Shown in pieces: positions 25,793-53,907 of a stretch of 64,000 nucleotides of DNA. The position numbers and the translations under genes were made by a program. The notes under the pieces are model-generated. The model made no database searches. It was not told the origin of the DNA and saw only the letters and a list, made by a program, of their open reading frames with translations. Position 1 is the stretch's first letter. Each line of letters begins with the position of its first letter. The stretch comes from an uncultured candidatus Porisulfidus sp. (GTDB lineage: Bacteria > Pseudomonadota > Gammaproteobacteria > Poriferisulfidales > Oxydemutatoraceae), in contig OZ244052.1 in NCBI GenBank assembly GCA_965215125.1, positions 1,600,001 to 1,664,000 of the forward strand, in the 5' to 3' direction.

Positions 25793-27022
25793 ATGTCCGT
25801 AATAGTCCAGAAATTCGGCGGTACATCGGTTGCCTCCGTTGAATTGATAGAGCATGTTGCGACGATAGTCCATAATACCCAACGGCAGGGGCATCAAATC
25901 ATCGTTGTCGTGTCGGCAATGAGTGGCGAGACCGACCGCTTGATAGGATTGGCTCAAAAAGTGGATGCACATTATAGCGGTAGAGAACTCGATGCACTAT
26001 TGGCAACCGGCGAGCAAAGCAGTGCCGCGTTATTGGCAATCGCTTTGAACAAGCGGGGCGTTGAGGCAATATCCATGACCGGCTGGCAAGCCGGCATGAT
26101 GACCGATCAAAGCTGTAATAAGGCGCGTATTCGATCTATAGAGGAGGATAAGATCAAACATCGCTTGGAACAAGGAAAAGTTGTGGTCATCGCCGGCTTT
26201 CAAGGTATAGACGAACACGGCAATATTACTACGCTGGGGCGAGGCGGCTCGGATACCACTGCGGTCGCGGTTGCGGCAAAACTCAAGTGTGAAGAGTGTA
26301 GGATCTATACCGATGTAGACGGTATTTATACCACCGACCCGCGTATAGAACCTAAAGCTCGTCGCCTTGTCTCCATTACCTTTGAAGAAATGTTGGAAAT
26401 GGCAAGTTTAGGTTCAAAGATACTACAAATCCGCTCGGTAGAATTGGCAGGCAAGTATAATGTACCGGTTAGGGTGCTGTCTACTTTCAAAGAAGGTCAA
26501 GGCACGCTGATTAGCTATGAGGAAAATTCAATGGAAGAACTAAGAATTTCGGGTGTCGCTTGCAATCAAGACGAAGCACAGCTCACCGTGCGCGGTGTGC
26601 CGGATAGACCCGGCATTGCCGCGAGTATATTGGAGCCTATCGCAGAGACAAACATAGAAATAGATATGATTGTCCAAAATGTAGGCTCGCGCGACGGTAT
26701 TGCCGATTTCACGTTCACCGTACACCGTAGAGATTATCGCAAAGCAATGAAAATTCTCGAAACAACGGTTGAAAAGTTAGGTTCGGGACGAGTTATAGGT
26801 ACCGACAACATCGTCAAAGTTTCTCTAGTCGGTGTCGGCATGCGCTCACATGCCGGTATCGCCTCTAAAATGTTTAGTGCACTTGCCGAATCCGGCATAG
26901 ATATACGCATGATATCCACCTCGGAGATAAAAATCTCCATTGTTATAAAAGAAGAAATGATGCAAAAAGCCGTGCAGACCCTACATCGCGCTTTTGAGCT
27001 TGCTAACGCTAAGCACCCGTAA
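25793..27022 (+). CDS. lysC: Aspartate kinase
   Basis: VQKFGGTSV, TLGRGGSDTTAV, two ACT domains. Confidence 0.97.
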   Translation: MSVIVQKFGGTSVASVELIEHVATIVHNTQRQGHQIIVVVSAMSGETDRLIGLAQKVDAHYSGRELDALLATGEQSSAALLAIALNKRGVEAISMTGWQAGMMTDQSCNKARIRSIEEDKIKHRLEQGKVVVIAGFQGIDEHGNITTLGRGGSDTTAVAVAAKLKCEECRIYTDVDGIYTTDPRIEPKARRLVSITFEEMLEMASLGSKILQIRSVELAGKYNVPVRVLSTFKEGQGTLISYEENSMEELRISGVACNQDEAQLTVRGVPDRPGIAASILEPIAETNIEIDMIVQNVGSRDGIADFTFTVHRRDYRKAMKILETTVEKLGSGRVIGTDNIVKVSLVGVGMRSHAGIASKMFSALAESGIDIRMISTSEIKISIVIKEEMMQKAVQTLHRAFELANAKHP

Positions 27023-27103
27023 AAGCGGTAATTCCTCTTAAGGGAAGGCATGTCGGCCCTCCTTTACAGAGCGCGTGGTAGGCGTAAAAGAAATAAACTA
27101 ATA

Positions 27104-27691
27104 GGAAATTATATAGTTAACTTGACAAAGAAATGTTAAATTATATCAATGCAAACCCATAGAACAATTAGATACCATTTATATCCGGCGACACAGAAAA
27201 AACACCGGCAATTACATGGCACAGCAGGCGCATGCCGCTATGTCTGGAATCACTTTGTAGCTAAGTTGAAGGACGAATACGAGTATTACGGCGAAAGCCG
27301 GTTTAAATTCTTCACCCTAGGCAAGCAATTTACGACATTAAGAAAGTATTGCGACAAGTGGTTGCAAGTTTATTCCGCTTATATCGTCAAATCATCATTA
27401 CAACCGATAGAGATAGCATACAAAGGATTTTTCAAGGGCAACAACGTATTGCCGAAGTTTCACGGCAAATATACGCATAGCCCGTCATTCCCGATCAATT
27501 TTCAAGTGTCGGCATTGCGGACACGAGGACAATGCGGATGTAAATGCTGCATTAAACATTTTGGCGGCCGGGAGTACCGCAACCGGATGTGGAGACGGCG
27601 ACAGTGGCAACACAAGTCGGTCAATGAAGCGTCAAAAAGATAGGGTGGCAAGGCAGGCTAAAAAGTCTGCCAAGTTAACTATATAATTCCC
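27104..27691 (+). mobile_element. 588-bp non-autonomous element with 24-bp TIRs and 8-bp TSD, carrying a deleted tnpB
   Basis: Left TIR GGAAATTATATAGTTAACTTGACA (27104-27127); right TIR reverse complement GGGAATTATATAGTTAACTTGGCA (27668-27691), 22/24 identical; flanking direct repeat AACTAATA at 27096-27103 and 27692-27699. Confidence 0.88.
27149..27686 (+). pseudogene. tnpB: TnpB (RNA-guided endonuclease family) with a large internal deletion and frameshift
   Basis: N-terminus RYHLYP...AGACRYVWN (OrfB HTH) and LPKFH; shifted frame from 27501 reads FKCRHCGHEDNADVNAALNILAAG (Zn-ribbon half plus RuvC-III) to TAA at 27684-27686; the RuvC-I/II region is missing. Confidence 0.88.
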
Positions 27692-27748
27692 AACTAATAT
27701 CAACACTTTAGTAGTGTTATATAATATGCCGACAGGAGGAATATTATT

Positions 27749-27967
27749 ATGTTAATTTTGACGAGAAGGATAGGAGAAACATTCAAAGTAGGAGATGACG
27801 TTAGTGTTACCGTTTTGGGAGTAAGAGGAAGTCAAATAAGAATTGGCATTTCCGCGCCTAGGGGTATAGATGTTTATCGTGAGGAGATTTACGATAAAAG
27901 GAAAAATGCCGTTAAGCAATCTGCCGAGAACGAAAAGAAAGCATCTGATGTTGTCGCCTCGCATTGA
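27749..27967 (+). CDS. csrA: Carbon storage regulator
   Basis: [10 protein letters not shown]...IRIGISAP...REEIY; AGGAGG RBS; lysC-csrA-tRNA-Ser context. Confidence 0.96.
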
Positions 27968-27988
27968 AAAGGTTTATTTCCCGATTAC

Positions 27989-28081
27989 GGAGAGATGGCC
28001 GAGCGGCTGAAGGCGCTCCCCTGCTAAGGGAGTATGGGGTTTGTAGCTCCATCGAGGGTTCGAATCCCTCTCTCTCCGCCA
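27989..28081 (+). tRNA. tRNA-Ser(GCT)
   Basis: Acceptor stem GGAGAGA/TCTCTCC, anticodon arm CTCCC-CTGCTAA-GGGAG, long variable arm, GGTTCGAATCC, 3' CCA. Confidence 0.97.
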
Positions 28082-28199
28082 CAGACTTTTGATGGCTAAG
28101 CGCAAGTTGTAGCAATCCCTGTGGCATGATCAAGCAGATAAAGCAGGTCAACATTTTTGTTCGTTGCATACGTCTTAAAATAAAACGATTTTAAGTGAA

Positions 28200-53780: not shown

Positions 53781-53907
53781 GTAGAACCGCCGATTGAGCT
53801 AGTAGGTCAATCGGCGTAACGTTGTGCAGAACTTTAACATATTGGTGACGCATATATTACAAAATGTAAAAGCCATCGTTTGTTGCAACGGCAACAAACG
53901 GCGGTTA
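53781..53907. repeat. Inverted doublet of REP-A hairpins (REPIN-like)
   Basis: GTAG-AAC-CGCCGATTG...CAATCGGCG (53781-53816) on +; variant CGCCGTTTG...CAAACGATG on - (53903-53874) abutting the gene 3 stop. Confidence 0.8.

Follow-up and report, generated by a model that had tools for sequence, protein, structure and literature searches.

The window analysed here, a stretch of 64,000 nucleotides from contig OZ244052.1 of an uncultured candidatus Porisulfidus sp., contains between lysC and csrA a remnant of tnpB enclosed in inverted repeats. TnpB, a compact genome-editing nuclease, is ancestral to Cas12. The remnant is best read as an internally deleted copy of a 1.26-kb non-autonomous tnpB element, here called the cassette. 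The cassette has ends of the kind found in the IS1595 family of insertion sequences (ISs), would be moved in trans by an IS1595-type transposase, and would be retained preferentially where TnpB can use an adjacent target-adjacent motif (TAM); we give this reading a probability of about 0.6. It rests on ends shared between cassettes and transposase-bearing ISs, on 8-bp duplications that differ from site to site, on a conserved RNA structure at the 3' end of tnpB, and on a purine-rich motif found on one side only of cassette insertions.

The biology of TnpB is understood in the IS200/IS605 and IS607 elements, in which the fixed target motif of the transposase doubles as the TAM. How TnpB pays its way in a DDE transposon with variable insertion sites is presented as an open point in the text of a 2026 review (PMC13565253). 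The cassette family provides a concrete, testable case, with dozens of independent insertions, a partner transposase that has the same ends, and a guide that would begin with the duplication; it also offers an orientation-specific flank motif that is absent from its tnpB-less relatives. Should this motif be a TAM, its richness in purines would be unusual for TnpB and would have practical interest. The finding is modest for the window alone: its copy, lying between lysC and csrA, is a dead and old insertion.

A tnpB cassette with IS1595-type ends

The sequence-only reading of the window had described 24-bp inverted repeats (22/24 identical), an exact 8-bp duplication, insertion between lysC and csrA, and a TnpB stop codon lying within the right repeat and preceded by a hairpin. 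All these features were recovered (Table 1); the neighbouring genes are lysC and csrA, and the stop codon (TAA) of the C-terminal tnpB frame is at 27684-27686. Only two sites of the window match the repeat pattern with up to three mismatches, and none did in 100 shuffles. The open reading frame (ORF) that starts at 27149 matches Pfam HTH_OrfB_IS605 (5e-9), and the 3' remnant gives a partial PF07282 match. Only the first and last parts of TnpB are retained, without D184 and E266.

The empty lysC-csrA site anticipated in relatives was found in two of them. In the same-genus genome G003 the lysC-csrA region is uninterrupted and has one ACCTAATA between homologous flanks at the insertion point. 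Because this empty site has a single 8-mer, the duplication in the window is a genuine scar of insertion. A low-depth contig in metagenome runs X1-X3, which comes from a strain of about 90% identity, connects position 27055 with position 27694 through 28 other letters, and this junction is an empty site.

Comparison with a full-length copy of 96% identity shows that 680 bp are missing from the window copy, lost between two copies of a 16-nt direct repeat, CCCGATCAATT(A/T)TCAA. This comparison confirmed the internal deletion proposed earlier. The loss takes RuvC-I and RuvC-II and shifts the frame; therefore the window copy cannot make a nuclease. Both ends and the entire candidate RNA scaffold are kept, and the copy may thus remain open to movement and guarding in trans by the intact copies of 96% identity.

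Seven copies of the cassette are present in the genome from which the window comes (2.22 Mb in one contig). Five of them are full length (1259-1269 bp), with an intact ORF of 397-405 aa whose start lies 46 nt inward of the left end and whose stop lies 5 nt short of the right one; two of these ORFs are those of 405 aa at G000 1725149-1726363 and of 402 aa at 1278990-1280195. The ORF spans the element nearly from end to end, which disposes of the idea of a one-off nested insertion. Inverted repeats of 24-27 nt were found in all seven copies. The flanking 8-mers agree at 8/8 positions in two copies, at 7/8 in three and at 5/8 in one, and do not match in the last; the duplicated 8-mer differs between copies. 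The other copies have thus kept their ends, the five copies with duplications of 7/8 or 8/8 each having a different one. In the sixth copy (G000:C1:965778-967676; loci L006, L010 and L015), an IS3-like insertion whose two ORFs (87 aa and 272 aa) run on the opposite strand interrupts the element. The same copy has an independent internal deletion, in which both ends and the last ~140 nt are again kept; contigs with a 146-nt skip that matches this copy (27407 to 27554) were found in runs X2, X3 and X5.

The copy at G000:C1:1725104-1726371 and an IS1595-family IS of the same genome (769526-770819) both lack matching duplications, and both have TTT 5' of the left end and AAA 3' of the right end (AAAGGTTT/AAAGTATA and AAAACTTT/AAAATATA), which suggests either a rearrangement or a repeat that is 3 nt longer. 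Two tRNA genes, on the opposite strand, are situated about 85 nt away from the same full-length copy (L018 1179-1369).

Of 41 related genomes, 18 contain the family. When one genome per species was scanned by pattern, 305 stretches were confirmed and 80 of them retained for analysis; by record title, nearly all of these come from metagenome-assembled genomes (MAGs) of sponge-associated Gammaproteobacteria, plus one Opitutales MAG. A metagenome scan added 42 stretches, and a further search of five copy-rich relatives gave almost no additional full-length copies. Among relatives whose protein identity is about 42% or more, which include members of other genera and families, nearly all show ends of the GGGAATTAT type together with 8-bp duplications; distant paralogues of 29-41% identity are mostly without them. 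In a minority of loci the ends were overlooked or wrongly placed by the automatic end-finder, and such rows were not scored as end-less. When plasmids were searched with tblastn, only TnpBs of at most ~36% identity were obtained, so this search is uninformative on the reach of the design beyond sponge symbionts; neither of the two nearest of these plasmid TnpBs that were examined (33-36% identity) has such ends.

Paralogues L080-L086 (genomes G030, G032 and G034) have open frames of about 470 aa and lack GGGAATTAT-type ends, several with a TTTGTGTGGAAA-like sequence near both ends, and probably represent a different element family. Two family members, L131 and L134 (53% identity), share one contig of the Opitutales (Verrucomicrobia-type) sponge MAG; their ends were left unresolved by the automatic end-finder. 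These copies point to transfer across phyla within sponge microbiomes.

The full-length product matched Pfam Cas12f1-like_TNB, OrfB_IS605 and HTH_OrfB_IS605, and scored 198.9 bits with NF040570 (guided_TnpB, cut-off 100). It stayed below the NCBIfam cut-offs for IS200_TnpB (162 vs 425) and IS607_TnpB (76.5 vs 350). Residues D184, E266 and D357 and the cysteines of the zinc ribbon are invariant in eight diverse members (down to 56% identity). Pairwise comparison of the genome's five intact copies gave a ratio of non-synonymous to synonymous substitution rates of 0.14-0.19 in 9 of 10 pairs and of 0.41 in the closest pair. Purifying selection acts on TnpB, whose D-E-D triad is intact. Its closest natural relative of solved structure is ISDra2 TnpB (8bf8, E 4.7e-28, over the full length), and all six PF07282 matches in the genome belong to the TnpB family of the cassette. 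The full-length TnpB of the cassette appears to be an ordinary, functional-looking one.

A transposase with related ends was sought as partner. Two 99.8%-identical 1294-bp ISs of the IS1595 family are present in the genome of the window, each encoding a 308-aa transposase (PF12762, 134 bits; NF033547, 186 bits, cut-off 75), and one of them is flanked by an exact 8-bp duplication. The ends of transposase ISs are GGGAAYTAT... inverted repeats; those of the 1294-bp ISs, GGGAACTATAGCGATTAGTTGACAAAG, are identical to the cassette ends at 21 of 27 ungapped positions. In relatives, transposase-bearing ISs of 1246-1410 bp have exact 8-bp duplications and the end types of the local tnpB cassettes. A transposase-bearing IS in the same-genus genome G004 (L207) begins with GGAAATTATATAGTTAACTTGACA, a 24/24 match with the left repeat of the window copy, and another in G001 (L215) matches the GGGAATTATATAGTTAACTTGACA repeat of the family at 23/24 positions. 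The inner halves of the repeats vary by subfamily, yet agree between tnpB cassettes and transposase ISs. The expected IS1595-type transposase sharing the cassette ends therefore exists, as a 21/27 match in this genome and a 24/24 match in G004. PF12762 was detected in 18 of 18 tnpB-positive genomes (in four as fragments only), in 8 of 23 tnpB-negative genomes, and in 26 of 41 overall; these 41 genomes are all kin, so that this co-occurrence does not amount to a statistical test.

When nine transposases were compared with 150 tnpB loci (417 kb with flanks) by tblastn, a single adjacent fragment was obtained; tnpB and transposase never lie within the same element. Since the transposase is absent from the cassettes and the ends are shared, the cassettes are non-autonomous riders on IS1595-type ends; the cassette is a rider, not an IS1595 member in the autonomous sense. 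The duplication is exact (8/8) at 46 distinct cassette sites. No match to the Y1 transposase domain PF01797 was found in the 99%-complete genome of the window, in a search that matched 6 of 14 known genomes used as control. The earlier proposal that a DDE lineage captured tnpB was that of a capture and of a movement: its anatomical part, the shared ends and 8-bp duplications, held, and movement by the transposase is what we infer from them.

A conserved RNA structure and a one-sided flank motif

RNAalifold, applied to 29 diverse 3' ends, predicted 26 pairs, and compensatory changes were present in 13 of these. When 23 pairs that make up five helices were tested, 94.8% of the cells were paired, compared with 84.1% in shuffles (0 of 500 shuffles reached the observed value) and with 33-46% in a slid-partner control. 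Double changes affected 12 of the 23 pairs, in 65 cells. Because the alignment that was scored had also yielded the structure, and because its sequences are related, these values somewhat overstate the support for pairing. A terminal hairpin whose 3' arm is the inner right repeat was recognised by eye, with different sequences, in about 24 of the 29 representatives. Across 13 copies, synonymous divergence was 0.29 in codons 361-400, compared with 0.52-0.67 in every earlier window of codons, and non-synonymous divergence peaked in the same codons (0.20). These results show that the last ~160 nt of tnpB and the right repeat form a conserved, covarying RNA structure. This structure is a candidate for the scaffold of an omega-RNA, the guide RNA of TnpB. 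The 3' end of this RNA and its guide, for which a length of 16 nt is assumed, are predictions, the guide being deduced from the known geometry of TnpB guide RNAs and from the position of the flank motif. A scan of six full-length loci against Rfam, with E values up to 1, gave no guide-RNA family, and only two tRNAs beside one copy.

The flanks of cassette insertions were compared on the tnpB-sense strand, position 0 being the base directly 5' of the duplication. The set was restricted to insertions with IS1595-like ends and duplications of at least 7/8, rows with poorer duplications being dropped; out of 143 entries for genome loci, among which two retrievals had produced many duplicates, 65 qualified and gave 44 distinct sites. 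Position 0 was a purine in 43 of these 44 insertions, and in 16 of 16 sites of a hold-out metagenome set (combined, 59/60: G 35, A 24, T 1, C 0). Purines were also frequent at positions -2 (49/60), -4 (43/60) and -3 (40/60), C was rare at -1 (3/60), and the first base of the duplication was G in only 1 of 60 sites. The mirrored position in the right flank gave no signal (pyrimidine in 27/60). When no duplication filter was used and ends were anchored on the repeat alone, position 0 was a purine in 90 of 100 distinct sites, and in 46 of 46 sites with an exact duplication. The AAATA that precedes the duplication of the window copy fits the motif, and in its subclade TA stands directly before the duplication in seven of eight sites (by reading).

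Transposase-only ISs with the same end types have a purine at position 0 in 10 of 18 distinct insertions, and no bias at the mirror position. The difference between these and the tnpB cassettes (59/60 vs 10/18) is significant for this small control set (Fisher p = 1.5e-5).

Two other origins of the motif were considered and rejected. A -35 promoter box would need the consensus C at position -1, yet C is the rarest base there. A bias due to the anchoring of ends was discarded, as the motif lies 9-13 nt outside the repeat and persists with repeat-only anchoring.

Proposed retention beside the flank motif and its alternatives

The one-sided purine flank is read here as a TAM-like signature. In the reading that we prefer, an IS1595-type transposase would move the tnpB cassette in trans, and the guide of the omega-RNA would be read from the right flank, beginning with the 8-bp duplication. 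With a guide read from the right flank, the TAM is expected directly 5' of the single 8-mer of the empty site, that is, at the position of the motif. TnpB would then cut the matching empty site, composed of the purine-rich TAM-like motif, the single 8-mer and the right flank, and this cutting would favour retention or re-acquisition of the element. The occupied site would be spared, with CCC before the right junction and a left junction that matches the guide over 8 nt only. The terminal CCC of the element are the least favoured bases at three motif positions, and therefore the right junction, which matches the guide, would be without motif. The motif itself would arise through better retention or re-acquisition of those insertions that lie beside a usable TAM. 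Homing with self-avoidance, as put forward in the sequence-only reading, is still a prediction, which gains support from the one-sided TAM-like motif.

Several points weigh against this reading. Two full-length copies, c880 and c1725, are without matching duplications. The genome of the window has no transposase IS with closely matching ends, the best being the 21/27 match, and the closely matching L207 and L215 lack intact duplications (2/8 and 3/8), the ORF of L215 being short as well. A simple promoter scan of positions 27000-27800 detected no sigma-70-like site (a TTGACA inside the left repeat is not claimed as one). In the transposase-only control, 8 of the 18 sites come from one IS in one genome, and the control copies are younger, so that the contrast with the cassettes could result from age or from survivorship unrelated to TnpB. 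A degenerate purine-rich motif is unlike the T-rich targets of IS200/IS605 elements (TTAC, TTGAT) given in the text of the review (PMC13565253). The same source points out that cut-and-paste excision already leaves a break, which makes the benefit of a guarding nuclease unobvious.

A broader form of the preferred reading is possible at less than even odds, and is advanced tentatively. It describes a three-tier parasitic system, in which the IS1595 transposase would move the elements, tnpB would guard motif-adjacent insertions, and deletion derivatives would be satellites that provide only a guide RNA. Only insertions in the right orientation beside a purine-rich left-flank TAM would be guarded from loss, so that these would persist; satellites such as the window copy would be moved by one foreign protein and guarded by another. 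If this is true, TnpB is workable with a transposase that has no fixed target sequence, a pairing treated in the 2026 review (PMC13565253) as an unresolved obstacle for prokaryotic associations between DDE transposases and OMEGA systems (short for obligate mobile element-guided activity).

The alternative that survives best keeps the anatomy of a trans-mobilised cassette and takes the motif to be something other than a TAM, either an orientation-dependent insertion preference or the result of a selection unrelated to TnpB, such as expression context. The degeneracy of the motif and the 18 sites of the control leave room for it. We consider it rather doubtful: transposase-only ISs show no purine bias at position 0 or at its mirror, and the motif, which was replicated in every site of the hold-out set, adjoins the first base of the predicted target, where a TAM should be. 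The terminal CCC of the element, the rarest bases at three motif positions, also counts against this alternative.

TnpB might also have been recruited away from homing, for example to act in RNA-guided regulation or to assist DDE transposition, the RNA structure serving that role. Exapted TnpB relatives that act as RNA-guided transcription factors are said to be known, which gives such a change of role a precedent. The doubts about the benefit of homing for cut-and-paste elements (PMC13565253) also speak for it. The invariance of the D-E-D residues and of the zinc ribbon makes recruitment unlikely, as do the persistence of tnpB in a mobile element with many copies and variable flanks, and a flank motif that suits the geometry of a nuclease and its target recognition.

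An ordinary IS200/IS605 (IS1341-type) element with coincidental repeats, or a one-off insertion into a miniature inverted-repeat element, would account for a TnpB of the ordinary ~400-aa type whose best family matches carry IS200/IS605-related names, but this highly improbable origin is refuted by the recurrence of ends and 8-bp duplications at at least 60 distinct sites in many genomes, by the end-to-end ORF, by empty sites with one copy of the 8-mer and by the missing Y1 transposase, and it also disagrees with the scores below the IS200_TnpB and IS607_TnpB cut-offs and with the lack of such ends at the two nearest plasmid-borne TnpBs examined.

Known systems and features of the window

In ISfinder, the ISNwi1 group of the IS1595 family has 8-bp duplications and ends of the cassette kind. 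The cassettes resemble the IS1595 family in the type of end sequence and in the 8-bp duplication; unlike its members, they have no transposase and contain tnpB and a structured RNA instead.

Fanzor elements were reportedly described in eukaryotic inverted-repeat transposons by Bao and Jurka in 2013. They share with the cassettes a TnpB-type nuclease, often alone, between inverted repeats of a DDE type that makes duplications, the repeat being part of the RNA scaffold (of the candidate scaffold in the case of the cassettes). Yoon et al. (2023; PMC10711439) show that Fanzor elements incorporate both inverted repeat and duplication in the RNA scaffold, with the RNA reaching about 15 nt past the duplication. 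Unlike Fanzor elements, the cassettes have bacterial hosts and a site-variable duplication; since this duplication varies from site to site, it would belong to the guide and not to the scaffold.

DDE-associated TnpBs were assigned by Altae-Tran et al. (2023; PMC10691335) to six branches (DDE-1 to DDE-6), all with inverted terminal repeats, and the only transposase family named in the text of that study is IS630. Solo TnpBs were described there with ends nearly those of transposase-bearing elements, and their mobilisation in trans was proposed. The cassettes resemble these DDE branches in having tnpB between inverted repeats with its 3' end within 250 bp of the element end (here 5 nt), and they resemble the solo TnpBs in having ends nearly identical to those of transposase-bearing elements. 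In contrast with the DDE branches, the transposase is here never in the same element (one adjacent fragment in 150 loci). From the 2023 study, the 2026 review reads ISL2, IS630 and IS1031; it discusses the rarity of DDE-OMEGA pairings among prokaryotes and offers inflexible target recognition as an explanation (PMC13565253).

The concept of TnpB in a DDE transposon is thus not new. IS1595 does not occur in the main text of PMC10691335 (its supplementary tables may list the family), and the text of this study that was examined mentions neither a variable 8-bp duplication nor a one-sided purine-rich flank motif. No description of TnpB with IS1595 or ISNwi1 was found in the literature by title or abstract. 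No description could be found of the partner family, of a strict separation of tnpB and transposase, or of the flank motif; the IS1595 partner and the motif may be new.

With the IS1341 group the cassettes share a single tnpB of about 400 aa and a non-autonomous organisation; the candidate guide-RNA scaffold of the cassettes would likewise overlap the 3' end of the gene. Elements of that group are described in the review as having hairpin ends, neither inverted repeats nor duplication, a dependence on Y1 HUH transposase, and insertion 3' of a fixed 4-5-nt motif (PMC13565253). Going by this description, the cassettes differ from them by their 24-27-nt inverted repeats, their 8-bp duplications and a genome that has no Y1 transposase. 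The cassette TnpB resembles ISDra2 TnpB (8bf8, 8exa) in size and domain order, residues 9-376 aligning with 9-380 (E 4.7e-28). ISDra2 is an IS200/IS605 element with the target motif TTGAT (PMC13565253), and the cassettes are unlike it in their ends and in their mobilisation.

The features of the window copy are listed in Table 1; the coordinates of the candidate omega-RNA scaffold were placed by eye.

Table 1. Positions, in the window, of the cassette copy, its parts and the neighbouring genes.
Feature	Position	Strand	Remarks
tnpB cassette (whole element)	27104-27691		588 bp; internally deleted copy
Left flank AAATA, adjoining the left duplication	27091..27095	+	fits the R-R-R-D-R logo of the family
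Left target-site duplication, AACTAATA	27096..27103	no strand	8 bp; single copy in the G003 empty site
Left terminal inverted repeat, GGAAATTATATAGTTAACTTGACA	27104..27127	+	IS1595 type; 24/24 with the end of the L207 IS
5' tnpB remnant, start codon and ~114 codons (helix-turn-helix (HTH)/WED-REC)	27149..27489	+	96% DNA identity to the full-length copy
Deletion junction, sole remaining direct repeat, CCCGATCAATTTTCAA	27490..27505	+	680 bp lost, frame shifted
3' tnpB remnant: second half of the zinc ribbon, RuvC-III, C-terminal tail	27501..27686	+	own frame
Candidate omega-RNA (right-end RNA, reRNA) scaffold	27534..27691	+	five conserved helices and terminal hairpin; covariation
Terminal hairpin, GGCAGGC-TAAAAA-GTCTGCC	27652..27671	+	3' arm overlaps the inner end of the right repeat
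Right terminal inverted repeat, GGGAATTATATAGTTAACTTGGCA	27668..27691	-	plus-strand end of the element is CCC
Right target-site duplication, AACTAATA	27692..27699	no strand	8 bp, exact
Predicted omega-RNA guide, duplication and next 8 nt	27692..27707	+	predicted; 16-nt length assumed
lysC (AA_kinase and ACT), upstream neighbour	25793-27022
csrA, downstream neighbour	27749-27967
tRNA-Ser(GCT), beyond csrA	27989-28081

In the region of tRNA-Ser(GCT) (27919-28120), the summed contig depth rose 10- to 130-fold in four metagenome runs, as expected for a sequence that many other organisms of the samples have in common with the window. Beside one of the IS1595-family ISs lies a repeat some 130 nt long (L016 2421-2562; G000 about 287231-287372). 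It has at least 35 BLAST matches across the genome, with 85-100% identity, and a partial copy lies in the window at 53782-53843.

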